Of a stretch of 64,000 nucleotides of DNA, positions 16,742-39,185 are shown in pieces; within the stretch, counting starts at the first letter, position 1; each line of letters opens with the position of its first letter. The DNA is from Coriobacteriia bacterium (GTDB lineage: Bacteria; Actinomycetota; Coriobacteriia; Coriobacteriales; RUG033), in contig JAATFL010000038.1 in the NCBI GenBank assembly GCA_015655215.1, forward strand, positions 2,157 through 66,156, in the 5' to 3' direction. The notes beneath the pieces were generated by a model, which was given only the letters and a program-made list of their open reading frames with translations, ran no database searches and had not been told where the DNA came from. The position numbers and the translations under genes are program-made.

Positions 16742-16763
16742 GAGCAAGCTGTTTACAGCATCT

Positions 16764-16840: not shown

Positions 16841-16850
16841 TCGAATTTGA

Positions 16851-16879: not shown

Positions 16880-16936
16880 ATGCACGTCGAGAATCCGGGC
16901 GCACCTACACGCAACGCCCTGCGCACCGGCGATGGG

Positions 16937-17410: not shown

Positions 17411-17467
17411 CGGCGTGCTGGCATCGTCGACAGCGACCTCGCACCCGATACGTGGAAACTAGAGGCC

Positions 17468-18754: not shown

Positions 18755-19001
18755 GATGGCCTCCAGGTCTCTTGACACACGAACAGGTTCGACTCGCATC
18801 TGACGTACCGGTCGCTCTCGTTCCCGAATCAGATGAGCGCATGCTAACGGTGACTTGCAGTATACCTTTGAGCCCTTTCCATCACCGCTGGAACATGCCT
18901 TTGATGGTCGCACGGACGCTCTCGTGCGCTAGAATGCCGTTAGCTCGATTACCCGGCAAAGCCCGGCATCGGCCTGGGCAGGCGACCGCACGACGTATGG
19001 G

Positions 19002-20385: not shown

Positions 20386-21835
20386 GACATCCACACGCCC
20401 GCGCCAAGCAGGCAACCGCCTCCTCCACGCTGCCTGCGGGTATCCCGGAGTAGTTCACGACCAGCACATGTTCGCCGCGACCATCGGGATGGTGCTGGTA
20501 ATCGGAAAGGCATGAGATACGGACACCCTGCGCCCTCGCGCGCCTGACGAGCACCTCGTCCGGCATCCCGGTGTCGATGCGCATGAGGAAATGCAACCCC
20601 GCCCCCTCCTCGGTGATGGTCACCTTCGACGCGAGGGGACTCGCCTCGATCGAGGCGAGCAACTCGTCGCGGAGCATGCGGTAGTGGCGACGCATGCGGT
20701 TGATGTGCTTTTCGAAGTACCCTTGTGTGATGAAGCGCGCCAAGGTGCACTGCTCGAAGTTCGACACCGTGCAGGCATAGAATCCCATCTCGCGATCGAA
20801 CCGCTCGAGCAACGCCGGCGGCAGCACCAGATAGCTGATGCGAATCGTGGAGGCGAGCGACTTGGTGAACGTGTTGAGGTAGATGACCTTCCCGGCACCG
20901 TCGATGCTCTGCAACGAGGGAATGGGTCTGCCGGCAAGGCGAAACTCCGAGTCGTAATCGTCCTCGATGATGTAGCGAGAGGCGGACGACGCCGCCCATG
21001 CCATGAGCTCGTATCGCCTGCTGATGGGCATGGCGATGCCCGTGGGATAGTGGTGCGACGGGGATATGTGCACGATGTCGGCCCCACTCTCGGCCAGCGA
21101 CGCGATGCCGATCCCCTGTGCATCGAGGGGGATGTGCCGGCAGACGACCCCGTTGCCCTCATACACCTTGGATATCTTCGAATACCCGGGGTCCTCGACC
21201 GCGTACACCCCGTCGCGTCCGAGCAACTGGAGAAGCAACCCGTAGAGGTACTCCGTTCCCGCCCCCACGATGACCTGCTCGGGTGCCACCGACATCCCGC
21301 GAAACTCATGCAGATGATCGCAGATGGCCTGGCGCAACTCGAGTATGCCCCCTGCGGGCGAATTGGCCATCAACACGTCGCGATCCTCTGCGATGACCCG
21401 ACGCATGAGCCGTGCCCAGGTTGAGAAGGGGAAGTTGTCGGGGTCGGTCTGGTTGCTCGAGAAGTCAACGAGAAGGTGCTGGTCGGACGAAGGGGGAGGC
21501 TCGACCGCGAAGCGGGAGCGCACGTCTTCGGGGTGCGGTAAACGACCGACATCGATGGGATGCATGCGCAGGTGGGAGTCCTCGAGAAGCTTTGGAGCGT
21601 CGGCGACGTAGAAGCCCTTTTGGGGCGCCGAGTAGATGTAGCCCTCCGCCACGAGCTGGGAATACGCGTTCTCCACCGTGATGGTGCTCACGCCCATGTT
21701 TCGAGCGAAGGCGCGCTTTGAGGGCAGCTTCGTCTCGGGAGCCAGCGCGCCGGCAACGATGTCGTGCCGTATACAATCGTAGAGATAGCGGTAGAGCGGC
21801 TCGTCACCCCGACCGTCAAGCGGATACGTTAGCAT
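20375..21835 (-). CDS. pdxR: MocR/PdxR-type GntR regulator with aminotransferase-like domain
   Basis: [67 protein letters not shown] forms a wHTH, followed by a fold-type-I PLP domain. Divergent from pdxST. ATG 21835 has GGAGGAG 4 nt upstream. Confidence 0.85.
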
Positions 21836-22001
21836 GCGCTCCTCCGAACCACTGGCACTGACCTTAGCATCTGGCATAATATTTCTGCGTATATTGAACA
21901 TTTTAATATATCCAGTTGTGAGTATACTTCTCTCGGAAGTTCCCTGGAGGACCTCCATGGAAACGATGTGGATTGCCCGGCAGGCGGGTGGGAAGAGGTG
22001 C

Positions 22002-22898
22002 ATGAGGATGGCTGAGGTAGAGGTCGAGAGGACACAGTACCAGCTCAACAAGGAGCTCGCTCAGATGCTCAAGGGTGGCGTGATCATGGATGTCACCAAC
22101 CCGGAGCAAGCGCGCATCGCCGAAGCTGCGGGGGCGTGCGCCGTCATGGCGCTCGAACGCATCCCCGCCGACATCCGCGCGGCGGGCGGCGTCTCACGTA
22201 TGAGCGATCCCAAGATGATCAAGGGCATCCAAGATGCCGTCTCCATCCCCGTCATGGCCAAATGCCGCATCGGGCACTTCGTCGAGGCGCAGATCCTCGA
22301 GGCCATCGACATCGACTACATCGACGAGAGCGAGGTCCTCTCACCCGCCGACGATACGTACCACATCGACAAGACGCGCTTCAGGGTGCCCTTCGTCTGC
22401 GGGGCGAAGGACCTGGGAGAAGCCCTGCGTCGCATCGCCGAGGGTGCGTCGATGATCCGCACCAAGGGGGAGCCCGGTACGGGTGACGTGGTGCAGGCCG
22501 TGCGCCACATGCGCATGGTGAACGCCGAGATCGCCCGCATCGCCAGCCTGCGCGACGACGAGTTGTTCCAGGCAGCCAAGGATCTGCAGGTGCCCTACGA
22601 GCTCGTACAGCTCGTACACGACGAGAGGCGCTTACCCGTGGTCAACTTCGCGGCAGGTGGTATCGCGACTCCAGCCGATGCCGCCCTGATGATGCAGCTG
22701 GGCGCCGAGGGTGTGTTCGTGGGATCGGGCATCTTCAAGTCGGGCGATCCTGCCAAACGCGCAGATGCCATCGTCAAGGCGGTCATCCACTATCAGGAGC
22801 CCACCGTCATCGCCCAGCTCTCCGAAGACCTCGGTGAGGCGATGGTAGGCATCAACGAGCAGGAGATCGACCTCCTCATGGCCGAGAGGGGCAAGTGA
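22002..22898 (+). CDS. pdxS: pyridoxal 5'-phosphate synthase lyase subunit PdxS
   Basis: [52 protein letters not shown] is near-canonical PdxS. The start is ATG 22002 or 22008. Confidence 0.95.
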
Positions 22899-22899
22899 C

Positions 22900-23481
22900 G
22901 TGAACGTCGCCGTACTCGCCATCCAAGGGGCCTTCGTCGAGCATGAGAACATGTTGCGACGCCTTGGCGTCACCTGCGTCGAGCTGCGCGGAGCCTCCGA
23001 CTTGCGCAAGCCCTTCGACGCGCTGGTGCTGCCGGGAGGCGAGAGCACCGTACAGGGCAAGCTCTTGCGCGAACTGGGGATGTCCGACGACATCAAACAG
23101 CGCATCGCAGACGGCATGCCGGTGCTCGCCACCTGCGCCGGACTCATCCTGCTGGCCGATAGGGTGGTCAACGACCCTCGCACCTACCTGCGCACGCTCC
23201 CGATCGTCGTGCGGAGAAACGCCTACGGACGTCAGCTGGGAAGCTTCCGCACGCTGGGGGATGTCCACGGTATCGATGCCCATGGCAAGGGGGCCTTCCC
23301 CATGGAGTTCATCCGTGCACCGTACGTGGAGGAGGTGGGCGACGACGTCGAGGTCCTCGCAAAGATCGATACCCACGTCGTGGCCGTGAGATACCACAAC
23401 CAGGTGGCGACGGCATTTCACCCCGAGCTCACCGGTGACACCCGCGTGCACGAGCTGTTCCTCGACATGATCGAGAAGTAG
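22900..23481 (+). CDS. pdxT: pyridoxal 5'-phosphate synthase glutaminase subunit PdxT
   Basis: VNVAVLAIQGAFVEHENMLRRLG...LVLPGGESTV...ATCAGLILLA...FHPELT. GTG start lies 1 nt after the pdxS stop. Confidence 0.95.
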   Translation: MNVAVLAIQGAFVEHENMLRRLGVTCVELRGASDLRKPFDALVLPGGESTVQGKLLRELGMSDDIKQRIADGMPVLATCAGLILLADRVVNDPRTYLRTLPIVVRRNAYGRQLGSFRTLGDVHGIDAHGKGAFPMEFIRAPYVEEVGDDVEVLAKIDTHVVAVRYHNQVATAFHPELTGDTRVHELFLDMIEK

Positions 23482-23523
23482 GGGCACCGCTGGAAAAGGA
23501 CCTATCACGTGAGCATCTCGGAT

Positions 23524-23558
23524 AAAAAAATCAGGGCATCCTCGAGAGGATGCCCTGA
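23524..23558 (-). terminator. rho-independent terminator downstream of tRNA-Leu (may also stop pdxT read-through)
   Basis: TCAGGGCATCCTC / GAGGATGCCCTGA inverted repeat (23531-23558). It is flanked by AAAAAAA at 23524-23530, which is a U-tract on the minus strand. Confidence 0.75.
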
Positions 23559-23569
23559 TCGCATTCGGA

Positions 23570-23655
23570 TGGTGCGGGCGAGAAGATTTGAACTTCCACG
23601 AGGTTGCCCCCACATGGACCTGAACCATGCGCGTCTGCCATTCCGCCACGCCCGC
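23570..23655 (-). tRNA. tRNA-Leu (anticodon CAG), CCA encoded
   Basis: The reverse complement reads GCGGGCGTGGCGGAATGGCAGACGCGCATGGTTCAGGTCCATGTGGGGGCAACCTCGTGGAAGTTCAAATCTTCTCGCCCGCACCA. It has a long variable arm, and the anticodon loop is TTCAGGT. Confidence 0.9.
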
Positions 23656-23990
23656 ACGTAAACACGTGGGAATCTTACACGAGCCACATCAGGTAAACAA
23701 GTCCTATCCGCACGGCGTCCGGTCGAGCGGGGAAGGGATGAGGCAGACGCTTGCGTACCTTGGACAAGCAGATGATATGACACAAGGGCCATGATGGTGA
23801 AAGCACGACGCAATGCAGAAAGAAACCACGTTATACGTACCCAAATGAGGGGCTCTTCCCCTCGTTCCAGAGTATAATGATCGCGATGGTCCCCCTTGGG
23901 AAAAGATATGTACGTCGTTTTGGGTTTTCCCATCGACACCTCGGATGAACTTGCGCCAGTTTGTGTCGTATGGTTTTCGTGAGGAGCCCT

Positions 23991-25502
23991 ATGGCCAACC
24001 GAGACCAAGCCCAGGGCCATATGGCCAACATCGCCCATGCCAGTGCCACCGCGGGTGTCGCCCTCTATTACACGTGGATGCTCTCTCTCATCCACGTCCT
24101 CGACGTAAGCATCAACCCCTCACTCGGTATCTCCTGGAATCGCCTGTTCATCCTACTCGGAATCGTCCTCGTCATGCTCTTCTCCGTGTTCATATCGAGA
24201 AAGACGATCGGCGCATCCAGGCTCCTCAGCATCGGCTTTCTCCCCTTCGCGATGCTCGGAACGTTCATGGCAGGCTTCACTACGGCCTTTGGACCAGCCG
24301 GCGTGACATTGCTCGCTGCTTGCGAGCTACTCATCGGCATCGAGTTTGGATGGTTCACCCTGAGCTTCGGCGAACTCTACGGACTGGTCGACACCGCGGA
24401 TGCCCTTAAGTCGTATCTGCTTGCAACGGTGATAGTCATCGTACCCGTCTACCTCATCTCCCTGCTGCCTTCGCTTTGGATCCTCACCGTCGACGCGCTT
24501 CTCCCCGCACTTGCAGCCGTCGCCCTCAACGTCACCATCAGCATCGATGAAGGTGAGTCGAGAATCATAGAACGCAAGGCAAAGCAGAGGAAAAGCCCCC
24601 TCACCTCCCCCACCTTCCGTCTCCCCTGGAAGACCTCCGACCTTTACGGGCTGCTTACCCCCGTGAGTGTGACTGCGGGCCTGTTCACCTTCATCTTCAC
24701 CTTAGGTAACGTCTATTACGGCTCACAGCTCCTCGTCATCATCGGTCTCTGCCTTGCAAGCACCCTCATCTTCGTTGGGTTCACATTCTTCAAGCATGCG
24801 TTCTCGGTGCGTAACATGTACCGCCTCGGGGAGGTGGTAATGGTCGGTGGCCTTGCCTTGATGCCCGTGTCGACATCGGCAGGTACCATCTTCACCTGTA
24901 TGTCGATGTGCATGATCTGCACACTGCTCGTACTCACTCTGAGCGAGGTTGCCGTACGATTCAACATCTCACCGATCCGCCTCACGAGCTTTACCAATGC
25001 TGCGGCGTTTGGCGGTGCGTGGCTTGGAACATTGGCAGGCAGCATTCTTATCTTTGGCAGAGCATCGTACGGTACCCTCGGGCTTTCCGCCACCACCGCA
25101 CTTATCATCATCGTCGTCGTTGCCTATAACGCATTCGGTACCGACAACGGGGGCTTTATCTTCGAGATACACGATAATCCTGAGAGCATCGAACTTAGAG
25201 GGGTTGTATACGACAACGACGACAGCAGGGAGATGATCATCAAGAAACTCGCATACTTTGAGACGCTCAACCGGCGCTGCGCTGAATTAGCCGCCGAATA
25301 CCGGCTCTCGGCCCGCGAGGAGGAGGTGTTCACGCTCCTCGAACAGGACTACAGCATCTCCAAGGTGGCCGAGAGGCTCTGCATCTCCCAAGGTACGGTA
25401 AAGACGCACGTCCATCACATCTACGATAAACTTGACATCCATACCCGCGACGAATTAATGGCCCTGTTGGACCCCTTCGAGAAACGAACCGTCTCTCCAT
25501 AA
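23991..25502 (+). CDS. LuxR-family transcriptional regulator with polytopic N-terminal membrane domain
   Basis: About 10 hydrophobic helices, then a C-terminal LuxR HTH (LSAREEEVFTLLEQDYSISKVAERLCISQGTVKTHVHHIYDKLDIHTRDELMALL). ATG 23991 is preceded by GAGGAG. Confidence 0.8.
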   Translation: MANRDQAQGHMANIAHASATAGVALYYTWMLSLIHVLDVSINPSLGISWNRLFILLGIVLVMLFSVFISRKTIGASRLLSIGFLPFAMLGTFMAGFTTAFGPAGVTLLAACELLIGIEFGWFTLSFGELYGLVDTADALKSYLLATVIVIVPVYLISLLPSLWILTVDALLPALAAVALNVTISIDEGESRIIERKAKQRKSPLTSPTFRLPWKTSDLYGLLTPVSVTAGLFTFIFTLGNVYYGSQLLVIIGLCLASTLIFVGFTFFKHAFSVRNMYRLGEVVMVGGLALMPVSTSAGTIFTCMSMCMICTLLVLTLSEVAVRFNISPIRLTSFTNAAAFGGAWLGTLAGSILIFGRASYGTLGLSATTALIIIVVVAYNAFGTDNGGFIFEIHDNPESIELRGVVYDNDDSREMIIKKLAYFETLNRRCAELAAEYRLSAREEEVFTLLEQDYSISKVAERLCISQGTVKTHVHHIYDKLDIHTRDELMALLDPFEKRTVSP

Positions 25503-25588
25503 CGCTTCGAGACGGCGCACGCCCATCGTGTGGGTGAACACCGTCTCGAGATTCGTCCCTCGCGCATATACGCCGTTTCCTACCGCTC

Positions 25589-26437
25589 CTACTTATACGA
25601 GTAGAACCCTTCCCCGGTTGCGATACCGAGTTTGCCCTCATCGAGGTACTTCTCCTTGACGATTCTGGAGAAGTTCTGCACATCCGGGTCCTTTGACATC
25701 GACATGATGTGGTAAGCGGTCTTCAAGCCAACGATGTCAAGGTACTGGAACGGCCCTTTGGGGGAACCGGTGCCGATGCGCCAGATAGCGTCGATATCAG
25801 TGGGCTCCGCATATCCACCACCGTACAGCTTTGAGGCGGCATCGAGGAAGGGGACGGAAAGCGAGTTGAGCAGCCATCCGGCCTTCTCCTTCTTGAGGGG
25901 CACGGCGACCATGCCGGTGTCCGTGGCGAACCGTACGACCTGATCGTAGACGGCTGGGTCGGTCTTGGAGGTGGCCATGACCTCGGCGCAGTTCATGGTC
26001 CAGATATGGTTGGCATAATGGAGGCCGAGGAACCTCTCGGGGCATCCCGTCGCATCCATCATGTCGCTCGGGAGCAGTGTGGAGGAGTTCGTGCAGACGA
26101 TGGTCCGATCAGGCAGGACACCTGCGATGCTTCGGTACAATGCACGTTTCTGCTCAAGGTCCTCGGTGATGGCCTCGATGACCATGTCCGCATCCGCGAC
26201 GGCAGCGATGTGGTCCGTGGTGTAGCTGATGTTGGCAAGCCCGTGCGCAATCTGATCGTCCGTGGTGCCGAGTATCTCAGCCTGGTACATGGTGGCGATC
26301 CCCTCGATGGCCTTCTTCGAGGCACTGAGGATGTCATCACTCAAATCGCAAGCCGTGACATTGAAGCCATGCACGGCGGTTTGGAACGTTATCTGCGACC
26401 CGAGAACGCCCACGCCGATGACGGTGATGTTCTTCAT
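25589..26437 (-). CDS. 3-hydroxyacyl-CoA dehydrogenase (Hbd-like), copy 1
   Basis: MKNITVIGVGVLGSQITFQTAVHGFNVTACD NAD Rossmann motif. The C-terminal domain has KEKAGWLLNSL and GPFQYLDIVGL. Confidence 0.85.
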   Translation of the reverse strand: MKNITVIGVGVLGSQITFQTAVHGFNVTACDLSDDILSASKKAIEGIATMYQAEILGTTDDQIAHGLANISYTTDHIAAVADADMVIEAITEDLEQKRALYRSIAGVLPDRTIVCTNSSTLLPSDMMDATGCPERFLGLHYANHIWTMNCAEVMATSKTDPAVYDQVVRFATDTGMVAVPLKKEKAGWLLNSLSVPFLDAASKLYGGGYAEPTDIDAIWRIGTGSPKGPFQYLDIVGLKTAYHIMSMSKDPDVQNFSRIVKEKYLDEGKLGIATGEGFYSYK

Positions 26438-26488
26438 AGTTCCCTCTTCCCAGATTATGAGCATGGATATGCGCTGATGCGCGGAATA

Positions 26489-27349
26489 CTACTTTCTATA
26501 GCTGTAGAAACCCTCACCCGTTGCAATGCCGAGCTTGCCTTCGTCGATGTAATCCGATTTGAGGACCGCGGCGAACTCCTTCGCGCCTGATACCTGGGCC
26601 ATCATGAGCACCTGGTACACGGTCTTGAGACCGATGACGTCCATGATCTCGAACGGACCACGGGGGGCACCGGTGCCGATGCGCCATATCGAGTCGATGT
26701 CCTTGGGTTCTGCATAGCCGCCAGCGTAGAGCAGGCAACCGGAGACGCACAACGGGACCAAGAGCGAGTTGAGCAGCCATCCGGCCTTCTCCTTCTTGAG
26801 CGGCACGGCGACCATGCCGGTGTCCGCGGCGAACTGCACGACCTCGGCAAACGCCGCCGGGTCCGTCTGGTCGGTACCCATGATCTCGGCGGAGTTCTGG
26901 ATCCAGATGTGGTTGGCATAATGGAGGCCGAGGAACTTCCCGGGGCGTCCGGTAAACGCGGCCATATCGCTGGGCAGAAGCGTGGAGGAGTTCGTGCACA
27001 CGATGGTCTTCTCGGGAAGGAGACCCGAGATGTCCTTATAGAACGTCTGCTTCTCCTTGAGGTCCTCGATGATCGCTTCGATCACCAGGTCGGCATCGGC
27101 GACTGCCAGTGCCCGGTCGGTCGTGTAGGTGATGTTGGCGAGCCCGCGTGCGATCTGCTCGGCGCTCGTGCCAGGGATCTCCTTCTGATAGCGCTCGGCG
27201 ATGCCAGCGATACTCTTCTTGGCACGATCGAGACTCTCCGCGCTCCTGCCGCATACGGTGACCCTGAACCCGTGCACCGCCGTCTGGAAGACGATCTGCG
27301 AGCCGAGCACCCCGTTGCCGAATACCGTCACGTTCTTCATGACCGTCAC
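26489..27349 (-). CDS. 3-hydroxyacyl-CoA dehydrogenase (Hbd-like), copy 2
   Basis: MTVMKNVTVFGNGVLGSQIVFQTAVHGFRVTVCG. A tandem paralogue of copy 1. Confidence 0.85.
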   Translation of the reverse strand: MTVMKNVTVFGNGVLGSQIVFQTAVHGFRVTVCGRSAESLDRAKKSIAGIAERYQKEIPGTSAEQIARGLANITYTTDRALAVADADLVIEAIIEDLKEKQTFYKDISGLLPEKTIVCTNSSTLLPSDMAAFTGRPGKFLGLHYANHIWIQNSAEIMGTDQTDPAAFAEVVQFAADTGMVAVPLKKEKAGWLLNSLLVPLCVSGCLLYAGGYAEPKDIDSIWRIGTGAPRGPFEIMDVIGLKTVYQVLMMAQVSGAKEFAAVLKSDYIDEGKLGIATGEGFYSYRK

Positions 27350-27430
27350 TGCCTTCCCTTGGATTTGCCCTTACACACTTACAGCCGCCACGATCCGCAT
27401 CCGACTGGATGCCCGCATGGCGGCATCTGC

Positions 27431-27730
27431 CTAACCGCATCGGTAACTGACGCCAAAGGTCCCTCGCGGATACGTCCACGTAGCCACGCCGCTGTTGCCC
27501 AACTGCCGGCATGCAAGACGGCATGTACCGCATTCGAGGCACCCAACATAATCGAACGCAAGTTTTCCATCGAGAAGCTTGTAGCACTGGGCGGGGCATA
27601 TGTAGAGGCAGGGCTTGTCACTGCACTCAAGGCAACACTCGCATTTGACTACGATATGGGCCTCGCCCTCATCCACGTTGAACTTATCGACCCCGAGCAA
27701 CTCCTCTGCACTCATCCTCTCGATGCTCAT
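27431..27730 (-). CDS. fixX: FixX-type ferredoxin with an additional N-terminal Cys motif
   Basis: MSIERMSAEELLGVDKFNVDEGEAHIVVKCECCLECSDKPCLYICPAQCYKL...FDYVGCLECGTCRLAC...YPRGTFGVSYRCG. ATG 27730 overlaps the fixC stop (ATGA). Confidence 0.8.
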   Translation of the reverse strand: MSIERMSAEELLGVDKFNVDEGEAHIVVKCECCLECSDKPCLYICPAQCYKLLDGKLAFDYVGCLECGTCRLACRQLGNSGVATWTYPRGTFGVSYRCG

Positions 27731-29046
27731 GATCCGTCCCCCTGCCGTAGAACCCGCCTGATCTTCCTGACATCCTTGAGGATTGCACCGAAACCGGTGT
27801 CCCCTTTGATACACGCCTTCAACTTTGGGTAGAGCGGTCTCCTCGAATCGGGGTCGAGGTGGTAGACCGTGGAGAAGATATCGTTTGCCAGTTTCGGGTA
27901 GATCGCAAAGATGCGGGGGTCATCCTCTATCTCGGGAAAGCGCGAGGCCATCTGCATCGCACGGTGTACTCCGAGTGCGTCGAGCTGCTCAGTGTAGACG
28001 GCACCTACATCTTCTGGGACACTGGTGGAGATGATCGCGTTGGCCGCCGCAAGGCCCGACAGGATGGCGAGGTCGATGCCCCGCACCGTGTAACCCTGGT
28101 TGACGGCAAAACCCGCCGCGTCCCCCGCCATGAGGAATCCGGTGCGGAACAGCTTCTCTGGCACAGCTTTGAGGCCGGCTTCGGGACAGAGATGCGCTGA
28201 GTACTCGATGGTGGTCCCGCCTTCGAGCAACGGTCGGATGGCCGGATGCATCTTCACATCCTGAAGCAGGTCGTGCACCGAAAGATGCTTTTGTGCAAGC
28301 ACGCTCGGGAGCAGCACGCACCCGAAGGAGATGCTCTCCCGATTGGTGTAGATGAACACGCCACCGTTGACACCCCTTGCTCCGCCAAGGGCCAGACGCG
28401 ACGCCCCCTCCCCTGCGGCGAGGGCGAAGCGGTCCTCGATGGTCCGTGCCGGCAGCGCAATCGTCTCCTTCGCCCCCACGAGCATATGCTCGACGCGAAC
28501 GTCGTCGATGAGACCGGCCTTCTGCCCCATGAGTGAGTTGGCACCGTCGGCTGCGACGACGATATCCGCAAACATCTCATCTCCGCCGGCACGCACGCCC
28601 ACGATCCCCCCGTCCCTCTCGATCAACTCATCGACGCGGATGCCACAGACGAGCATGGCACCTTTCTCCTCAGCCTGTCCGGAAAGCCACTCGTCGAACG
28701 TGGCACGCAGGACCGTATAGGACTCAGGAACCTTCCCCTCCTCGGCAAATGATGGGTCACCGTAGTCGATGCACAACGATCGTTCGCCATCGAGCATCAT
28801 CATCTGCTCATGGGTCACCTTGCGCTCGAGGGCTTCCTCCGCTTTGGCGGTAAGACCGTTATCGAGCATCTCGAGCGCGTAGGTATAGAACCTTCCACCG
28901 GTCACGTTCTTCGCCCCCGGCGTATCGGCCCTCTCTATCATCAGGACCTGCTTACCAGCCCGTGCCAGGGCATAGGCGCATGCCGCACCAGCCGGACCGG
29001 CACCGATGATGATTGCATCGAAGCGGTCGGATTCCTCCTCGTCCAC
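27727..29046 (-). CDS. fixC: FixC-type FAD-dependent oxidoreductase, copy 2
   Basis: DRFDAIIIGAGPAGAACAYALARAGKQVLMIERADTPGAKNVTGGRFY. Paralogue of 3792-5114. GTG start. Confidence 0.85.
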   Translation of the reverse strand: MDEEESDRFDAIIIGAGPAGAACAYALARAGKQVLMIERADTPGAKNVTGGRFYTYALEMLDNGLTAKAEEALERKVTHEQMMMLDGERSLCIDYGDPSFAEEGKVPESYTVLRATFDEWLSGQAEEKGAMLVCGIRVDELIERDGGIVGVRAGGDEMFADIVVAADGANSLMGQKAGLIDDVRVEHMLVGAKETIALPARTIEDRFALAAGEGASRLALGGARGVNGGVFIYTNRESISFGCVLLPSVLAQKHLSVHDLLQDVKMHPAIRPLLEGGTTIEYSAHLCPEAGLKAVPEKLFRTGFLMAGDAAGFAVNQGYTVRGIDLAILSGLAAANAIISTSVPEDVGAVYTEQLDALGVHRAMQMASRFPEIEDDPRIFAIYPKLANDIFSTVYHLDPDSRRPLYPKLKACIKGDTGFGAILKDVRKIRRVLRQGDGS

Positions 29047-30111: not shown

Positions 30112-30852
30112 CTATTGCCGCTCCTCGCGTTGCCGGCGATGCATGGCCCTCAACTCACCAACCTCGTCGCACACGTCCTGGAAGTCGCAGTTATTGCAGT
30201 CGTATGCAAGGTGTTCGAGCATCTTGTCCATCGCGACGACTGCCCGGGCCACCTTGTCACCTAATGGCTTGAAACGCCTCACCTCCTCTGCCGAGGAGGT
30301 GACCATGATCACCTCCGCCGCATCGACGTATGGCAAGACCTTGAGTGCTCGGATGAGCTCGTTGCCCAGCACATCGAGCGAGAACCCCTCGTCCAGCGCC
30401 TGTTCGCTCACCCGCCCCCACTCCCTGTTTTGCTGCGGTGCAGCGTGCAGCATGTATCCGGACAGGTCGAGCTTGAGCTTAAGCCGGTCCATCTCCGAAT
30501 AACGGGAGTAAGCGTTTCCCTCGTCGAACCCATGGCCGGAGACGAGCACGACCTTACCGAAGGGGAGCTCCTGCGCATGCGTTTCACGCAGGTCAGGACC
30601 GATAAGCCTGATACGCCCATCGACGACCCGTTGGGCAGCATCGCTCCCCACGTCGGTCCACATGAGGAACGATGTGGACTCGCTTCCTGGCGCTCCCAGC
30701 TCCATGGCCATGTCCCCTGCCAAAATGATCTGGCGTTTGACCCTGGGCCACGAAATCTGGGTGTTGTAGGCAAACGTTCGAGTGCGATCGGCAAGGTCCT
30801 CTGCGCTTACGAGCTTGAGCATCTCATCGATGTAGGTGCTGAACATGGTCAC
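30112..30852 (-). CDS. hypothetical protein resembling the N-terminal/central domain of acetyl-CoA synthase (CdhC/AcsB), truncated before the Ni-binding Cys-Gly-Cys
   Basis: ILAGDMAMELGAPGSE, VVDGRIRLIGPDLRE, REWGRVSEQALDEGF and the C-terminal YDCNNCDFQDVCDEV appear in the same order as remembered CdhC motifs (GMFVELGGPKS, KVTIIGPDLKD, WMRVSKDTAAK, YGCTLCQSFAPTNVC). This recognition is from memory and needs an HMM check. Confidence 0.5.
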   Translation of the reverse strand: MTMFSTYIDEMLKLVSAEDLADRTRTFAYNTQISWPRVKRQIILAGDMAMELGAPGSESTSFLMWTDVGSDAAQRVVDGRIRLIGPDLRETHAQELPFGKVVLVSGHGFDEGNAYSRYSEMDRLKLKLDLSGYMLHAAPQQNREWGRVSEQALDEGFSLDVLGNELIRALKVLPYVDAAEVIMVTSSAEEVRRFKPLGDKVARAVVAMDKMLEHLAYDCNNCDFQDVCDEVGELRAMHRRQREERQ

Positions 30853-30959: not shown

Positions 30960-31169
30960 TTACACCGTTGCCTCAGGCGCCACCCTCGTGGCAGCCTGAG
31001 CCTGATCCCTCGCCGCATACTCGCTTGCCTTGCGCAGGGCGGCGACCTTCTTGAGGGTGGGTGTCATCCTGGCGACCATCACGTCGTCGAGGTCGAACCA
31101 GTAGATCAACCCCACGGCGATGCCCACGACGCCCAGAGCCGCCGTCACGTTCCCGAAGATGTTCTTCAT
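30960..31169 (-). CDS. small single-TM protein (69 aa), paralogue of 31197-31382
   Basis: MKNIFGNVTAALGVVGIAVGLIYWFDLDDVMVARMTPTLKK... AAGGAGG lies 7 nt upstream of the ATG. Confidence 0.55.
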   Translation of the reverse strand: MKNIFGNVTAALGVVGIAVGLIYWFDLDDVMVARMTPTLKKVAALRKASEYAARDQAQAATRVAPEATV

Positions 31170-31196
31170 CTCGCTACCTCCTTCTTGGACTCGCGC

Positions 31197-31382
31197 CTAC
31201 ATCTGCTTGGAGAGCATGGATTGCGCGACGCGCCTCTCGGTATCCTTCTTGATGTCGTCGAGCTTGAACTTGATGGGAAGTGCCGCCATCTGGAACTTGT
31301 CGTCCAAGTCGTACCGCTCGACCAGGATCGTGACCGCAAAGAGCACTCCGATGATCGAAAGCACTGACTTCAGATCCTTCAT
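31197..31382 (-). CDS. small single-TM protein (61 aa)
   Basis: MKDLKSVLSIIGVLFAVTILVERYDLDDKFQMAALPIKFK... GAGAGGGTGAG RBS. Shares the MK start, the TM helix, the DLDD motif and a downstream Pro/Lys pattern with the 69-aa neighbour. Confidence 0.55.
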   Translation of the reverse strand: MKDLKSVLSIIGVLFAVTILVERYDLDDKFQMAALPIKFKLDDIKKDTERRVAQSMLSKQM

Positions 31383-31495: not shown

Positions 31496-32323
31496 TCATG
31501 TGAACTTGCTGGCCAGAGCTTTCCTACGAGCGAACTCACAAGCCCCGATGGCACCCATGAGCTGGGGGTCCGTGTCCAACGTGACGAGCTCGAACCCGAG
31601 CATCCGGTCCATGGCCCGTTTGAGACCCCTGTTCTTGGCGCATCCACCCGCCATCGTGACCTCGCGTTCGATACCCGCGGTCTTGAGCAGGGTGTAGCAG
31701 CGCTTCGACACCGACGCCTGTATCCCGGCTGCGATATCCGCAGGCCGCTTCTTCTGCGCCAGAAGGCTGATGACCTCGCTTTCGGCGAACACCGTGCACT
31801 GCGATGAGATCGGGGTTGGACTGTTGGACTGGAGCGCGAGTTCGCAGAACGCGGGCAGGTCCATCTCGAACGCGCGAGCCATGTTCTCGAAGTAGCGTCC
31901 CGTACCAGCTGCGCACTTGTCGTTCATGGAGAAGTGCCGAACCGAACCATCCCCGTCGACCATGATGCCCTTGATGTCCTGGCCTCCGATGTCGATGATG
32001 GTGCGCACCGCGGGGTTGGTGAGGTGGACGCCCATCGCATGGCAACTGATCTCGGAGACGTTCAGGTCGCAGGTGGGGACGTAATTGCGCCCATATCCGG
32101 TTCCCACGAGATACGCGAGCCCACCTATCGAGGAGAACGCCTCGACCTCCTCACCCGCCGTCTCGATGGCGAGCTGAGCCGTCGACTCGGGGTCCATCTT
32201 GCTGCGCACGATCGACGAGCCCAGGATCGCTCCCGTCGAATCCATGATCACGGCCTTGCCGTAGGTCGACCCCACATCACACCCGCATACCAGTTCGGTC
32301 ACCACGACCGTCTCCCTTCGCAT
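31496..32323 (-). CDS. BcrAD/BadFG-type ATPase, activator of 2-hydroxyacyl-CoA dehydratase-like enzymes (HgdC/HadI-like)
   Basis: CDVGSTYGKAV, IIDIGGQDIKG, NDKCAAGTGRYFE and SQCTVFAESEVISL motifs. The two Cys residues sit at positions typical of the bridging [4Fe-4S]. The start is uncertain (32302-32356). Confidence 0.9.
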   Translation of the reverse strand: MRRETVVVTELVCGCDVGSTYGKAVIMDSTGAILGSSIVRSKMDPESTAQLAIETAGEEVEAFSSIGGLAYLVGTGYGRNYVPTCDLNVSEISCHAMGVHLTNPAVRTIIDIGGQDIKGIMVDGDGSVRHFSMNDKCAAGTGRYFENMARAFEMDLPAFCELALQSNSPTPISSQCTVFAESEVISLLAQKKRPADIAAGIQASVSKRCYTLLKTAGIEREVTMAGGCAKNRGLKRAMDRMLGFELVTLDTDPQLMGAIGACEFARRKALASKFT

Positions 32324-32349
32324 CGGCACGATGGCCGAGAGTCCTTCTC

Positions 32350-34026
32350 CTACCACGCTTGCGAGTCGTCGAATTCGAGAAGGCTCGGATCGAGGGGGTC
32401 GGCGTGCATGACGTTGAACATGAAGTTGTTGATCTGGGTGCGCATGCCCTGGCGGCTGACGACACGCGTGTCGAAGAAGTTGTAATCACACACGCAGACG
32501 GGCACGTGATCCTTGCCCCACTCGTTGAGGAACCCGGTAAGGCTCGTATACCCGCGGCAATTGAGATGGTTCATGTCGAGGATGAAGTCGGGCTGGTACA
32601 TGTCGTTGAGCGTGTTGAGACCATCGATCCAGTTCTCCGCGGGACCACGCATGTGGCGTGCCATCGCCGCGTCGCACCAGCAGTTCGCGAGACCCTCGAG
32701 CATCGTGTCGGGCGTCGACGTGTCGATGGTGTACGCGGTGCCGAACTCCTCCATGTCGTTGACGATCTCGATTCCCCAGCACCGCTCGACCCAACCGTAG
32801 ATGCCCGCGTAATCGAAGGGGGGCGTGCTCCACATGACGGTGCGATAGCGGATGTTCTCGAAACAGGGGGTCTGTGACGCGTAGTTTCGCAACGCGAGTG
32901 CGGTGATGCGCTTGTAGAGATCGACGTCCTCCTGCGTCGAGGCCGCCAGGTGAAACGCCGGCATGTATGCGTAATAGAGTGCATCGCCGGTAAGGGGCGG
33001 GTTCAAGGCGCGGTTGAGGTCCCACAGCTGCGTCCTCATCTTCGTGAGTTCGTTCTTGCGCTCGCACACCTCCTTGAGCCTCACCCAGTTCATCTTCTTA
33101 CCGGTATGCTCTTCGAGGAAGGCGACCATGCCCTTGATGTCCTCCACGAACGTCTTTGCGCCGGGATCCCCTGGATGGAAGTTGTAGGGGACGTCGAGCC
33201 AGTAGGTGGGGATGCCCATCTCCTTGATCATCATGCTGTAACCCTCGAAGTGCGCCTCGCACGGCATGTTGGTGGCGATGAGGCAGGACGCCTTCTTGAA
33301 GTACTCGTCCACCGCGAACATCCCGGGTGTCTGCGTGGAGTACGTGCAGGTGTTGTCGGGAAGACCTTGGGCGTACATCGCGTCGAGGTACTTCTCGGGA
33401 GCATGCTGGTCGTCGAGGCCGATCACGTTAGCCGCCGCCTCGACGAGGAACACCTTGATGCCCATGGCCTGCGTGATCTCGGAGGGGATCATGTCATGGG
33501 TCATGACGGTGTGCTCGGGGTCGGTGATGATGTTCTGCAGGCCTTCGACCGCCGCCTTCGTGGTGAGGACGAGTTCGCGGTACAACGCCTCCTTCGACGC
33601 ACCGGTGCGCCCGCGAGCAAGCGTCTTGGCCAGATGGGTCGTCTTGAGCTCGTCGAGGATCCATGGATAACGGAACATGGCGTCGGTCGTCTTACCTGAC
33701 TCCACCTTGGTGAGTGACATGGAGGCGGCCCACATCTTGAGCCAGTACTTGAAATCGATCCACTGGTCATGTAGGTTCGCCTGCTTATTCTTGTCGAGCG
33801 CAGCCTTGAAGGCAGCCTGTCCCTGGGGACTCGACGCCTTGGCGGCGAACTCCCCCACCTTGCCCACGCCCTTCATCACCGTCTTGTTGATGACCGCTGC
33901 CTTCACCCTGTCATCGACCATGTACGCACTCACGGCCCCGACACCCTTCATGAGCAGAGCGTTCCTGGTCCGCTCGTCGACGAGCGCCCTCTTGAGCGTC
34001 GCCTTGGTCTCCTCTTTCATCTTCAA
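32350..34026 (-). CDS. 2-hydroxyacyl-CoA dehydratase / benzoyl-CoA reductase BcrBC-family (HGD-D) large subunit
   Basis: 558 aa. The core from about residue 150 (VMTHDMIPSEITQAMGIKVFLVE...CLIATNMPCEAHFEGYSMMIKEMGIPTYWLDVPY...) is HgdA/BcrC-like. A ~110-aa Lys/Ala-rich N-terminal extension is present. The start lies 3 nt after the upstream stop. Confidence 0.8.
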   Translation of the reverse strand: MKMKEETKATLKRALVDERTRNALLMKGVGAVSAYMVDDRVKAAVINKTVMKGVGKVGEFAAKASSPQGQAAFKAALDKNKQANLHDQWIDFKYWLKMWAASMSLTKVESGKTTDAMFRYPWILDELKTTHLAKTLARGRTGASKEALYRELVLTTKAAVEGLQNIITDPEHTVMTHDMIPSEITQAMGIKVFLVEAAANVIGLDDQHAPEKYLDAMYAQGLPDNTCTYSTQTPGMFAVDEYFKKASCLIATNMPCEAHFEGYSMMIKEMGIPTYWLDVPYNFHPGDPGAKTFVEDIKGMVAFLEEHTGKKMNWVRLKEVCERKNELTKMRTQLWDLNRALNPPLTGDALYYAYMPAFHLAASTQEDVDLYKRITALALRNYASQTPCFENIRYRTVMWSTPPFDYAGIYGWVERCWGIEIVNDMEEFGTAYTIDTSTPDTMLEGLANCWCDAAMARHMRGPAENWIDGLNTLNDMYQPDFILDMNHLNCRGYTSLTGFLNEWGKDHVPVCVCDYNFFDTRVVSRQGMRTQINNFMFNVMHADPLDPSLLEFDDSQAW

Positions 34027-35257: not shown

Positions 35258-36136
35258 CTACACGAGCACCCCGAACCTCTTGAGCGCCTGCGCCACCGCG
35301 ACCACCGACGGGTCCGTATCGGGTAGCTCGAGCAAGCTTCTGCCGGCGATGTCGAGTTTTCTGATGGGAGAATCCTCGATGACGCAACCCACCTGGTCGA
35401 TATCCCCCAGGTCGACCAGGTGGGCATCGGCCGGATCGACCACGCGGTTGAGCAGGACACCCACATGCTCGTAGTGCATGACCCCGCCATCGGCGACATC
35501 CCGTATCGTCCTGATGACGTTGATGCCCTTGAGACTGCAATCGGAGACGAGCAGCAGGTGCGTGACCGTCTCGAGCACACGACGGTTGACCTGCTCGATC
35601 CCGGCCTCGCCGTCGATCACGACGTAGTCGAAGCTGGCGACGAGCTCCTCGATGACCTCCTTGAGGTAATCGTTCACCTTGCAATAGCACCCTTCGGTCT
35701 CCGGGCGACCGATGGCGAGAAACGCGAAGTGCTCCCGCTCGGCCATCGCCTCGTACACTCGGTAGTCGAGTTCCTCAAGAATCGCCGCCACGTCCCCGGC
35801 CTCGCCCGTGCGACTGCTCCTGATGACGTCGTTCCTGATCTCATCGACGGTGTGCACCACGTCGACGCCCAACGCCGTGGCAAGGCCCACCGCCGGATCC
35901 GCATCGATGACGAGCACCTTCGCATCCGGACGCTCGGCGAGCAGGATCTTGGTGACCATGGCGGAGACGGAGGTCTTGCCCACGCCACCCTTGCCACATA
36001 TGGCCATGACCGTAGGTCTTGGACCGCCGGTGCCCTGGTGGGAGGCGCAACCGTGTCCGTGCCCATGCTCCTGATCCTGATCATGTTCATGGTCGTGCTC
36101 CTGGTGATGCTGATGCGCCCCACACTCCTCGCACAT
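35258..36136 (-). CDS. CooC/AcsF-like P-loop metallochaperone ATPase with Cys- and His-rich N-terminus
   Basis: MCEECGAHQHHQEHDHEHDQDQEHGHGHGCASHQ, then ICGKGGVGKTSVSAM (deviant Walker A), VIDADP, GCYCKVN (CooC CxC metal site) and IDGEAGIEQ. ATG 36136 has GGAGAGGAGGGA upstream. The alternative GTG 36166 overlaps the fixB stop. Confidence 0.75.
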   Translation of the reverse strand: MCEECGAHQHHQEHDHEHDQDQEHGHGHGCASHQGTGGPRPTVMAICGKGGVGKTSVSAMVTKILLAERPDAKVLVIDADPAVGLATALGVDVVHTVDEIRNDVIRSSRTGEAGDVAAILEELDYRVYEAMAEREHFAFLAIGRPETEGCYCKVNDYLKEVIEELVASFDYVVIDGEAGIEQVNRRVLETVTHLLLVSDCSLKGINVIRTIRDVADGGVMHYEHVGVLLNRVVDPADAHLVDLGDIDQVGCVIEDSPIRKLDIAGRSLLELPDTDPSVVAVAQALKRFGVLV

Positions 36137-36162
36137 AAGACATCCCTCCTCTCCGTGCAACG

Positions 36163-37077
36163 TCACCGTGCCGTGACGAGTGCGTCAGTAAGCAAGGGGA
36201 CCACGGCATACAGGTCACCTACGATGCCAAAATCCGCTTCCCTGAAAATGGGAGCCTTTTCATTCTTGTCGATTGCGACGATCACCTTCGCATCGCGTAC
36301 GCCCACCATGTGCTGCACTTGCCCGGAGACACCCACGGAGAGGTACAGGTCGGGTGCCACACTCACGCCGGATATGCCCACGTACTGCTCAGCGGGAACC
36401 CAGCCCCGCTCCTCGGCGATGCCGCGGGTACAGCCGATCCGTGCATCCAAAGCCGCTGCCAGACCCTCGATCAACGCCATGTCCTCACGCTTCGAGACAC
36501 CCATGCCCACAGAGACGATCCGCGGAGCGCATGACAGGTCGGCCCCCTCTTGCGAGAGCGGCTCCCTCTCCACCAGGTGGACGCGCATATCTGGTTGGAT
36601 GACAATGGTCTCAAGTGGGGAGTCCACACCCCGTACCGCCTCGAAACGCCCTGATGGTATGGTGACGACAACCGGTGTGGAGAATTCCTCCGACCGCACC
36701 ATGGCACCCCCGTACATGAGGCGTTCGGTTGAAAGCTTGCCATCCAGGAGATGCACGGCAGAAACGTCACTGGCCATCCCACACCCGAGATAACCAGCCA
36801 CACGTGCCGCTAGGTCACGACCACGCGGCGTTGCACCTACGGCGAAGAGACTCACTCCCCACTCATCGATCAAACCTGCCAGGGCCCTCGCGTTATTTTC
36901 GGGGATATCACTATCCCCATCGAGCAGAACGACCTTTGATGCGCCACATCCCACAAGCTCGGAAGCTTCCTCGGGACTGAACGTGACGATGGTGACGTCG
37001 TGCTCTTCCTCACGGGCAAAACCTACCAGCTCTGCGGCAAGCGAGGGCTTATCGCTGTAGATGAGAACTTCGTTCAT
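36163..37077 (-). CDS. fixB: electron transfer flavoprotein alpha subunit, FixB type
   Basis: 304 aa. The C-terminus EQYVGISGVSVAPDLYLSVGVSGQVQHMVGVRDAKVIVAIDKNEKAPIFREADFGIVGDLYAVVPLLTDAL parallels E. coli FixB. Confidence 0.9.
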   Translation of the reverse strand: MNEVLIYSDKPSLAAELVGFAREEEHDVTIVTFSPEEASELVGCGASKVVLLDGDSDIPENNARALAGLIDEWGVSLFAVGATPRGRDLAARVAGYLGCGMASDVSAVHLLDGKLSTERLMYGGAMVRSEEFSTPVVVTIPSGRFEAVRGVDSPLETIVIQPDMRVHLVEREPLSQEGADLSCAPRIVSVGMGVSKREDMALIEGLAAALDARIGCTRGIAEERGWVPAEQYVGISGVSVAPDLYLSVGVSGQVQHMVGVRDAKVIVAIDKNEKAPIFREADFGIVGDLYAVVPLLTDALVTAR

Positions 37078-37844
37078 GAGAGCATCCCCTCCTTCTTGAG
37101 CGCGCTCACAAGTGAGGTGACCTTATCGGACGCATCGCCGTCAACAAAGATGACATTCCTCCGGTTGGCGATGAAACCTTGCGATGAGAGAACCTTCGCT
37201 GCGGGTGCAGGGTCGCACCCGAGCTCGGCAATGCCAAGCTCATGCAGTGGCTTCTTTCCGGCGGAGAGAACCGCCTTGAGCCCAGGGATGGGGGGTTCAT
37301 AGCCAGCCGGTAACACTGCGATCACGCAAGGACGGTTCACCGTGACGGTCTCAAGGCAACCGTCGAGCTTGCGCGTCGCGGTGATTGAGTCGCCTTCCAC
37401 CTTCATCTCGATGACCGAGGTGACCGTCGGCCAATCAAGCAGGGCACCGACCCTGGGAGCTATCTGCCGTGCATAGGTATCACTCGCACCCTCGGCGCAG
37501 ATGACGAGCGATGTGCCGTCGATCGTCCGTATCGCGCTTGCGAGCACCTGACTCGTAACCAGGGCGTCAGCGTCGCACGCCGCCGCATCACCGACCCAGT
37601 ACCCCGTCGCCGGCCCACGGCTCAGTGCATCCTTGAGGGATTTGCGCACGTCTGGGGTCCCGAAGGTCAGCGTCGCCGTCGCGTCGCCCGTCTGCGCGGC
37701 GACCTGCATGGTCGCCTCGATGGCACTCTTGTCGAATTCCGAGATCTTGCCACGTGCGTGGCTCACATCGATGGACCGATCCGGGTTGATTACCAGGTCC
37801 TCTTCATCGAGAACCCATTTATAGCAGGCGACGATCGTTGCCAT
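37074..37844 (-). CDS. fixA: electron transfer flavoprotein beta subunit, FixA type
   Basis: MATIVACYKWVLDEEDLVINPDRSIDVSHARGKISEFDKSAIEA (compare E. coli FixA MKIITCYKCVPDEQDI...). GAGGAGGA RBS. 4-nt overlap with fixB. Confidence 0.9.
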   Translation of the reverse strand: MATIVACYKWVLDEEDLVINPDRSIDVSHARGKISEFDKSAIEATMQVAAQTGDATATLTFGTPDVRKSLKDALSRGPATGYWVGDAAACDADALVTSQVLASAIRTIDGTSLVICAEGASDTYARQIAPRVGALLDWPTVTSVIEMKVEGDSITATRKLDGCLETVTVNRPCVIAVLPAGYEPPIPGLKAVLSAGKKPLHELGIAELGCDPAPAAKVLSSQGFIANRRNVIFVDGDASDKVTSLVSALKKEGMLS

Positions 37845-38021
37845 CGGCCATCCTCCTCTTCTTGACGGCATCGTCCTCGACACGGGCTCCCGACCGATGG
37901 GGCCAGTCAGGTCGCACCTGCCATCTGCGACACCATATGTGTTGTCCTTCGAGACATCTCGGCCATCCAGACGTTCTCGGATCGCCGCCGGGAAAGCTCG
38001 CGTGCGCTCTCGCCGATGGAT

Positions 38022-39185
38022 TCACGCCAACGGGTACTTGCCATACCTCATCATCGTGCCGATGAAGTCCTGTAGAGCCTCGATGGAGGCGCCACCGATG
38101 GCAAGGACCTTCGCGTCACGCCAGAAGCGTTCGACTCCGGTCTCGTCGATGCAGCCGACACCGCCGTATATCTGGATGGCCTCGCGAGCGACCTCCTCGG
38201 CCACCTCGGCACCGCGGATCTTGAGCATGCGGCCCTCGCACAGCTCGAGGTTGCCGGCGTCCTTGTCGGCGAGGGTGCCGTAGACGAATGCGCGAAGTTC
38301 CTCGATCATCGTGCGCATCTTCACGAGCTTGAACTTGGTCACCTGGAAACGGTCGTACATGGGCACTCCGTGCTGGATGCGGCTCATGCTGTAGTCGAAG
38401 GCCATCTGGTAGGCGGCCTCGGCCATGCCCAACCCTACCGGACCGCAGATGAGGAACTCGTTGGTGCAGCTCACAGCCGTCGCCTGCATGCACTTTCCCT
38501 CGGGGCCCAAGAGGTGATCCTTGGGGATACGCATGTCGCTGAAGGAGATGGTCCCGGTTGCGGAGCCGTGCCATCCCAGCTTGCGCTCGTAGGAGCCGAT
38601 CGTGAGACCTGAGGTGTTCTTGTCCACGATGAACGCGCTGATGCCGTCACGGGTGATGGGGTCCACCTCGGAGGTCTTGATGAAGATGATGTAGACGTCG
38701 GCGACACCGATGTTGCTCACGAGGACCTTGTTGCCGTTGATGACGTATTCGTCCCCATCGAGCACGGCGTTGGCGGCATGCTCGACATGGTTGTCGCCTC
38801 CTTCGGGTCCAGTCGAACCACAGGCGAAGATGTACTCCCCGCTGCAGAGCTTGGTAAGGTACTTCTCCTTCTGCTCGGGAGTGCCCAGCATGTTGAGCAG
38901 ACCGCCGGCCAACTCCGCGTGCGCGCCCATGTTGACGGTGAGCACCGGAAGCGATTTGGCGATCTCCTCGTAGATGAGCGCGGCGGTGGTGAAGTCCAGA
39001 CCGAGACCGCCGTACTGCTCGGGCATGGTGATGCCGAGGAACCCCAGCTCGCCCGCTCGCTTGAACAGCTGTCCCGGGAATTCGCCCGTCTCGTCGACCT
39101 GCAGCGCAACCGGGGCGACCTCCTTCTCCACGAACTTCTTCGCCGTGTTGACCATCAGTTGGCGATCCTCATTCATGTACCACAC
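38022..39185 (-). CDS. acyl-CoA dehydrogenase
   Basis: 387 aa. MNEDRQLMVNTAKKFVEKEVAP...GITMPEQYGGLGLDF...IQIYGGVGCIDETGVERFWRDAKVLAIGGASIEAL. GTG 39185 has GGAGAGGA upstream. Confidence 0.9.
   Translation of the reverse strand: MWYMNEDRQLMVNTAKKFVEKEVAPVALQVDETGEFPGQLFKRAGELGFLGITMPEQYGGLGLDFTTAALIYEEIAKSLPVLTVNMGAHAELAGGLLNMLGTPEQKEKYLTKLCSGEYIFACGSTGPEGGDNHVEHAANAVLDGDEYVINGNKVLVSNIGVADVYIIFIKTSEVDPITRDGISAFIVDKNTSGLTIGSYERKLGWHGSATGTISFSDMRIPKDHLLGPEGKCMQATAVSCTNEFLICGPVGLGMAEAAYQMAFDYSMSRIQHGVPMYDRFQVTKFKLVKMRTMIEELRAFVYGTLADKDAGNLELCEGRMLKIRGAEVAEEVAREAIQIYGGVGCIDETGVERFWRDAKVLAIGGASIEALQDFIGTMMRYGKYPLA

Follow-up and report, generated by a model that had tools for sequence, protein, structure and literature searches.

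Nickel is inserted into carbon monoxide dehydrogenase (CODH) by the ATPase CooC (PMC6006190), and AcsF is credited with nickel insertion into acetyl-CoA synthase (ACS) (Gregg et al. 2016, as cited in PMC10134865). In Escherichia coli HypB, Cys2, Cys5 and Cys7 form, together with the N-terminal amine, a sub-picomolar square-planar Ni(II) site (PMC7055735), and the C-terminal domain of the nickel chaperone CooJ contains 16 His residues (PMC6006190). In this study, we analyzed a 64,000-nucleotide stretch of the genome of a Coriobacteriia bacterium (GenBank assembly GCA_015655215.1, contig JAATFL010000038.1, positions 2,157 to 66,156; hereafter the window), which encodes a CooC/AcsF-like P-loop ATPase with a Cys/His-rich N-terminal tail. 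The evidence tilts towards a metallochaperone whose tail captures metal in cis and feeds the CxC site of the same protein, and which would load a module made up of a small ACS-derived protein (mini-ACS) and a putative radical enzyme encoded in the same operon.

Judged from its sequence, the ATPase is a CxC-bearing member of the CooC/AcsF superfamily that lies outside the characterized CooC and AcsF clades. Its best sequence match in the PDB is CooC1 (3kje; E=1.8e-12, 29% identity over about 200 residues), and the alignment pairs GCYC of the ATPase with sqCYC and matches the switch II regions too. Other PDB matches (ArsA, McdA and MinD) had E values of 1e-7 or worse, 2e-4 or worse in the case of MinD, and mostly covered the P-loop alone. 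The models of generic relatives stayed under their cut-offs: minD_arch gave 42 bits (cut-off 202), ParA_partition 32 (180) and MrpORP 16 (450) in NCBIfam, where the ArsA models were likewise far below, and ParA/NUBPL gave 20.9 bits (27.1) in Pfam. The Pfam domains that were matched are AAA_31, CbiA and ArsA_ATPase; cobW was not among them, so the protein is not a G3E GTPase.

The phylogeny agrees with these scores. The tree was built from close homologues, 50%-identity representatives, a CooC1 fragment and AcsF-type genes of class relatives; NifH-like, ArsA and Mrp paralogues from the same genome served as outgroups, and supports are given as ultrafast bootstrap/SH-aLRT. The query fell in a clade of 24 rows (99/94), and CooC1 and the AcsF-type genes linked to RACo or CdhD fell in a separate clade of 30 rows (99/92). 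The tree does not settle the deep branching between the clades, and its sole characterized reference, the CooC1 fragment, has only 195 residues and a long branch. The genome's own Mrp was placed among the outgroups. Neither the scores nor the tree group the ATPase with generic ParA/MinD or Mrp/NBP35 proteins, and alignment of the CxC and switch II regions to 3kje points to the CooC relationship proposed in a preliminary description of the window. The CooC-type identity given there holds for the core, of which CooC1 is the best match, but the protein belongs to a clade of its own and not to that of CooC1 and AcsF.

The motifs of the core are strongly conserved. The deviant Walker A motif GKGGVGKT (residues 48-55) is invariant among relatives. 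GCYC (residues 149-152) is conserved in 100% of 121 relatives, and G-C-[YF]-C is kept by all relatives; the switch II motif DGEAGIEQ occupies residues 175-182. The MinD/ParA-type core with GKGGVGKTS (residues 48-56) and GCYC had thus been read correctly from the sequence. CooC1 of Carboxydothermus hydrogenoformans and CooC of Rhodospirillum rubrum, which use ATP to insert nickel into the C-cluster of Ni-CODH, share with the ATPase the MinD-type SIMIBI fold, GKGGVGKT, CxC and switch II. The ATPase differs from CooC1 in its clade, in the absence of cooS from its operon and genome, in its mini-ACS and HgdAB/BcrBC-like partners, in an extra Cys before Walker A, and in the Cys/His tail, which proteins of the CooC1 clade lack. 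With AcsF of Moorella and Carboxydothermus, a CooC paralogue that inserts nickel into the A-cluster of ACS, the ATPase shares the pairing of a CooC-family member with a protein derived from ACS. The Wood-Ljungdahl AcsF-type genes of class relatives, to which the ATPase is 33-36% identical, belong to the other clade and have neither a tail nor the pre-Walker Cys, and the partner of the ATPase corresponds to only the ACS middle domain plus a loop of three Cys. Many loci of the same class but other orders (L012-L040) show the Wood-Ljungdahl arrangement of RACo, AcsF-type ATPase, and FolD or CdhD. No CooC-family gene at E 1e-20 or better was found in the sampled genomes of the order of the source organism.

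Which N-terminus the protein has depends on the choice of start codon. The gene is real and lies on the minus strand, with 35258-36136 as its most likely extent; plus-strand translation of 35258-36166 is interrupted by stops. Translation from GTG at 36166 gives 302 residues, and translation from ATG at 36136 gives 292 residues beginning MCEECGAHQHHQEHDHEHDQDQEHGHGHGCASHQ. We prefer the ATG because a strong Shine-Dalgarno sequence, GGAGAGGAGGG, was read at 36144-36154 and ends 8 nt 5' of it, the gene callers' record (P0002) is the 292-residue form, all orthologues open with M-C-[ED]-x-C, and the closest orthologue (L124), likewise L001, has an in-frame stop 3-6 codons 5' of the ATG. The open reading frame (ORF) of the preliminary description, 35258-36166, was found at those coordinates and on the minus strand, but its GTG-extended 5' end was not upheld. 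The same applies to the N-terminal CxxCxxC motif noted there, since the third Cys (CLMCEEC) is present only with the GTG start, which the orthologues exclude. Because the ATG is the better start, the true N-terminal motif is M-C-x-x-C-G-A-H, in which MCEECG is a CxxC.

This motif leads into a stretch of unusual composition. The 27 residues from 8 to 34 include 10 His, 5 Gln, 3 Asp and 3 Glu, and their His enrichment over the 2.4% His of the 252-residue core has a binomial P of 3e-10. The His/Asp/Glu tract of the preliminary description was thus borne out, with Gln as a further component. In an AlphaFold2 model of the ATPase (predicted local distance difference test score, pLDDT, 87 overall; predicted template modeling score 0.84), pLDDT exceeded 90 for most of residues 41-292 and was below 50 for residues 1-32, so that the tail is predicted to be disordered.

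The start of the tail resembles that of HypB. E. coli HypB begins with MCTTCGCG and the ATPase with MCEECGAH, so that Cys2, Cys5 and Gly6 are shared; Cys7 of HypB is replaced by Ala7, and His8 of the ATPase lies near the place of Cys7. Common to both proteins are the N-terminal M-C-x-x-C-G, a flexible stretch that is putatively metal-binding in the ATPase, a dimerizing SIMIBI NTPase domain and a Cys site at the interface. By analogy, the ATPase probably shares the HypB mode of capture, hand-over and nucleotide-gated release. However, HypB is a G3E GTPase whereas the ATPase is of the MinD type, and the two NTPase domains are not homologous beyond the P-loop class. The resemblance of the tails appears to be convergent because a search with the tail alone (residues 1-42) found no relatives; this search returned only the query and carries no information, low complexity having probably thwarted it. 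His-rich stretches are also carried by HypB of Bradyrhizobium and Rhizobium. The nickel storage and delivery proteins CooJ, UreE, SlyD and Hpn share with the tail a disordered, His-rich segment with acidic residues, but they are separate proteins or carry C-terminal tails, whereas the tract of the ATPase is N-terminal and in cis.

The tail has a narrow distribution. An N-terminal Cys/His extension was found in only 7 of the 120 closest homologue clusters. Scanning one genome per species yielded at least 554 candidate stretches that encode relatives of the ATPase, and the 50%-identity library contains 140 representatives at E 1e-30 or better. None of the best 80 loci of the scan, each representing a species, has a tail. 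It was also absent from every row of the CooC1/AcsF clade. The statement that CooC usually lacks such a tract therefore proved right. The seven tail-bearing sequences are monophyletic (100/97) and sister (99/95) to tail-less sequences of Desulfosporosinus, Syntrophomonas and other Firmicutes. All members of this clade share the fixed start M-C-[ED]-x-C-x-A-H-x-[HR], and the remainder diverges, with 29-59 residues and 3-11 His among orthologues. The tract is thus not confined to one protein, as had been considered in the preliminary description, since the motif and 3-11 His are kept in seven clusters. Between the source sequence and its closest orthologue, the non-synonymous rate (dN) was 0.18 in the tail and 0.063 in the core (core omega 0.09), and the tail kept its H/D/E composition as well as its first 16 residues. 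A genome-wide scan for His-rich tracts was swamped by Arg/His-rich off-frame ORFs in this genome of 62% GC.

The same genome contains a second copy of the module on contig C28 (about 21700-28700; L010:3685-10703). The order there, repeated in L133, is a Tat-signal flavoprotein, two HGD-D subunits, an activase, a mini-ACS of 277 residues and a CooC-like ATPase (P0122). This ATPase is 36-40% identical to that of the window and has a different Cys/His-rich N-terminus (CFDC...HH...HEH...C..SHEGH); its relatives P0151, P0152, P0165 and P0281 also have His-rich N-termini and the C28 gene order, the contexts of P0152 and P0175 being contigs of only 1-1.6 kb. The tree implies that the tails of the two paralogue clades are independent gains. 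RpoB places the source organism within Coriobacteriia, close to Eggerthellaceae. When 300 further genomes of the class were sampled, neither copy had an orthologue among them; the two modules thus look like lateral acquisitions that received their tails later. Weaker matches in class relatives were considered as orthologues of the second paralogue and rejected, being ordinary tail-less CooC/AcsF genes.

The clade of the ATPase is tightly linked to mini-ACS. Linkage was assessed in 31 loci, each from another species and flanked by 7 kb or more on either side, and mini-ACS was present in all 31. Both HGD-D subunits and the activase were present in 29, and in the other two (L082 and L084) the ATPase and mini-ACS occurred alone, with no HGD-D genes within 10 kb. 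Because the pair occurs isolated in these two loci, it looks like the core unit. In L082 (9983-11504) the pair lies beside thiamine genes and a divergently oriented gene resembling that of [FeFe]-hydrogenase. Species in which relatives of the ATPase were found include gut Lachnospiraceae, Oscillospiraceae and Acutalibacteraceae, Pseudobutyrivibrio, Gemmiger and Tepidibacter, as well as Desulfobacterales, Smithella, Spirochaetota and Myxococcota.

Mini-ACS matches residues about 325-475 of ACS structures in the PDB, that is, the middle domain. All 62 sequences examined keep its motif C219-x2-C222-x5-C228, and 79% of them have H238. The resulting C-x2-C-x5-C-x9-H pattern recalls the cubane loop of the ACS A-cluster, C-x2-C-x8-C-x9-C, with His for the fourth Cys. 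The two loops may be homologous; a PDB search with the C-terminal Cys segment of mini-ACS gave no ACS match.

The remaining genes of the operon are listed with the features of the ATPase in Table 1. All lie on the minus strand, in the order acyl-CoA dehydrogenase, etfB, etfA, ATPase, two HGD-D subunits, activase, two small ORFs, CdhC-family mini-ACS and an ADC-family gene; Pfam detected neither cooS nor acsB. The 395-residue HGD-D subunit scored under the cut-offs of the NCBIfam double-cubane, HadC and BzdN models. The operon order recurs in metagenomic orthologues and is rearranged in Desulfosporosinus fructosivorans. The order of acyl-CoA dehydrogenase, etfB and etfA is common to L124, L001, L005 and L125, and small genes occupy the position equivalent to the two small ORFs in these four and in L003. 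In the more distant orthologous operons L001 (8935-9990), L005 (8938-9993) and L125 (6943-7998), a Zn-type alcohol dehydrogenase gene separates etfA from the ATPase gene; the source operon, where etfA and the ATPase ORF meet at 36163-36166, and the closest orthologue L124 have no such gene.

Table 1. Position of the ATPase gene, its sequence features and the neighboring genes within the window.
Feature	Position	Strand	Basis or remark
Acyl-CoA dehydrogenase	38022-39185	minus	Pfam
etfB	37074-37883	minus	Pfam
etfA	36163-37077	minus	Pfam
Stretch upstream of ATG back to GTG	36137-36166	minus	Probably untranslated; GTG overlaps etfA stop
CooC/AcsF-like P-loop ATPase gene	35258-36136 (stop codon included)	minus	ORF list, translation; 292 aa from ATG
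N-terminal M-C-E-E-C-G-A-H (Cys2, Cys5, His8)	36113-36136	minus	M-C-[ED]-x-C-x-A-H in 13 orthologue sequences
His/Asp/Glu/Gln-rich tract, residues 8-34	36035-36115	minus	Composition count; predicted disordered
Cys47 followed by deviant Walker A GKGGVGKT	35972-35998	minus	Sequence
G-C-Y-C, CxC metal-binding motif of CooC family	35681-35692	minus	Invariant in 121 relatives; aligned with CooC1
Switch II region DGEAGIEQ	35591-35614	minus	Columns invariant or near-invariant; aligned with MDMGAGIEH of CooC1
HGD-D family subunit, HgdB/BcrC-like, 395 aa	34030-35217	minus	Pfam HGD-D E=2e-72
HGD-D family large subunit, 558 aa	32350-34026	minus	Pfam HGD-D E=1e-45
BcrAD/BadFG-type ATP-dependent activase	31496-32356	minus	Pfam PF01869 E=1e-52
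Two small ORFs, of 61 aa and 69 aa, separating activase and mini-ACS	30960-31382	minus	ORF list
Mini-ACS, 246 aa, probable client/partner of ATPase	30112-30852	minus	Pfam CdhC E=1e-10

In 10 of 87 module loci, from gut Clostridia, the module adjoins a gene for an IsrA-like reductase of about 950 residues, which has two CxC motifs in its N-terminal region followed by Fer4_20, Pyr_redox_2 and Fer4 domains (L077:6034-9982; L079:9343-10014 and 15733-18989; L105:2648-6569; L051, L097, L119, L114, L069, L048 and L095). hypB lies within 10 kb of the module in L077, L079 and L105, abutting the CooC-like gene in L079, and hypA lies as near in these three and in L051. HypA/HypB have been reported to occur together with IsrA homologues (PMC10134865). 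The presence of hypA and hypB near the module was therefore rejected as direct support for nickel: those loci also carry the IsrA-like reductase, which leaves no ground for ascribing the association to the CooC-like module. Two putative nickel-linked units are thus co-located in the four IsrA-like loci with hypA and/or hypB.

The genome, of which the assembly is 79% complete, encodes the large subunit of an [NiFe]-hydrogenase, two hypA/hypB pairs and hypCDE. These genes indicate that nickel is used by the cell, for which the assembly shows no dedicated importer at that completeness. Its own HypB has neither a CxxCGC motif nor a His stretch. The second hypA/hypB pair (C9:22344-24408) adjoins a gene resembling the IsrA-specific N-terminal region, with 30% identity to residues 170-348 of the L077 protein. 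Nickel transporters, the search for which the preliminary description had suggested, did not turn up: CbiMNQO was the only system, and it was rejected as a dedicated nickel importer because it is a single system inside the cobalamin biosynthesis cluster. The only CdhC-family genes of the genome are the two fragments of about 245-277 residues, and there is no full-length ACS.

In the mechanism that we propose, the ATPase, with its deviant Walker A motif, would be a dimerizing SIMIBI-class protein whose CxC binds metal where the two subunits meet. The tail would capture and store a divalent metal, most likely Ni(II), and pass it to the CxC site; ATP binding and hydrolysis would then drive delivery to the Cys3(His) site of mini-ACS or to a cluster in the HGD-D enzyme. 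Which metal is carried, which way it travels and which protein receives it are inferred, unlike the features of the sequence, the placement in the family, the linkage to partners and the occurrence of the tail, which were observed. Nickel is favored by analogy, because the N-terminal motif is HypB-like and the only characterized functions of the superfamily, those of CooC and AcsF, are nickel insertion. Several observations weigh against this interpretation. Most members of the clade are tail-less, which makes the tail an accessory, and the long His tract is poorly kept, with 3-4 His in P0006, P0009 and P0016. His/Cys tails bind Zn and Co too, and CooC1 was reportedly crystallized with Zn (3kje series). 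Mini-ACS has neither the Ni-binding C-terminal domain of ACS nor its Cys-Gly-Cys nickel site, its matches ending at about 475-489. The preliminary description had stated that no known nickel enzyme is encoded nearby; an ACS-derived gene (30112-30852) is in fact part of the operon, but the statement stands insofar as that fragment is without the nickel-binding domain. A nickel CODH was rejected as client, since the sole Prismane-family gene of the genome encodes an Hcp of 522 residues (C24:9107-10642; L007:1486-3054) with the N-terminus CFQCEQTAGCPAC, followed by a Cys-rich ferredoxin-like ORF. From the gene content, then, no established nickel site is available as a client, and no NiCoT, HupE/UreJ or NikA was found in the 79%-complete assembly. 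A Foldseek search of the PDB with the ATPase model placed MinD, CooC1, BchL and NifH at an equal level; the fold does not discriminate, so it is on sequence, motif and tree that we base the assignment to the family.

These observations could be accommodated if the ATPase and its tail handle Zn or Co, or if the ATPase assembles or inserts an Fe-S cluster and the tail is a general divalent-metal buffer. The candidate clients, namely the HGD-D family and a mini-ACS with only a Cys3(His) loop, are Fe-S proteins; NifH and BchL, which are as close in fold as CooC1, hold a [4Fe-4S] cluster bridging their interface; the Zn-type alcohol dehydrogenase gene adjoins the ATPase gene in three loci; and the importer search was negative. 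Cys47, just before Walker A, is also found in 92% of the 121 closest relatives, but it is A/T/S in many members from gut Clostridia that have identical partners. Moreover, the operon already has an ATP-dependent, electron-donating activase, the M-C-x-x-C-G start copies a HypB site that was characterized for nickel, and nickel insertion is the only activity characterized in the superfamily. We regard this explanation as unlikely, though it deserves attention. The linkage data bear on another possibility, in which the ATPase is no maturase but stays with the mini-ACS/HGD-D complex permanently, in a regulatory or structural role such as that of an ATP-gated switch, with the tail as a metal sensor or docking peptide. 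The ATPase is in cis with mini-ACS in 31 of 31 loci, which is tighter than the CooC-CODH linkage reported for 59-68% of clade A, E and F operons (PMC13056359), and the pair also occurs without HGD-D genes. Dedicated maturases, however, usually show tight operon linkage too, and the CxC and switch regions of the metal-delivering CooC are invariant here, so a permanent partner seems distinctly improbable to us. The variation of the tail, with its range of His number and length, its non-synonymous rate of about three times that of the core, its predicted disorder and its absence from most of the family, would fit a neutral low-complexity expansion without function, in which case only the ATPase core would matter. 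This we consider the least probable of the explanations, given that every orthologue keeps the first eight residues, M-C-x-x-C-x-A-H, that the H/D/E composition is kept despite the turnover of the sequence, and that a second, independent Cys/His-rich tail exists in the paralogue clade and is present in the same genome.

A metallochaperone with a His/Cys tail is a known theme; the fusion of such a tail to a CooC-like ATPase is new. Our search of the full-text literature found no paper linking CooC-type ATPases to operons of the HGD-D or benzoyl-CoA-reductase type, and none describing a His-rich CooC. The ATPase represents a large sister clade of CooC/AcsF that is wired to an ACS fragment and to enzymes of the benzoyl-CoA-reductase/2-hydroxyacyl-CoA-dehydratase type, which are thought to need Fe-S clusters only. 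Of all the sequence evidence for trafficking of a metal bound by His and Cys in these modules, the tail is the most direct, and its HypB-like character hints that the radical-enzyme system needs nickel or a similar metal. It is conceivable, if rather doubtful, that the CooC-like ATPase and mini-ACS form the maturation or metal-holding unit of unrecognized nickel-dependent (or Ni-Fe-S), ATP-driven radical enzymes of the HgdAB/BcrBC type, the tail being a convergent nickel-capture device. If so, gut Clostridia, syntrophs and sulfate reducers would widely possess this class of nickel enzymes, and the tail, gained twice in Coriobacteriia, would be the first sequence-level sign of that metal requirement. 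If the metal is Zn, or if the client contains only Fe-S clusters, the tail would still represent convergent evolution with HypB. If it is nickel, a new family would join the short list of nickel enzymes, and the finding would bear on the trace-metal needs of gut anaerobes.

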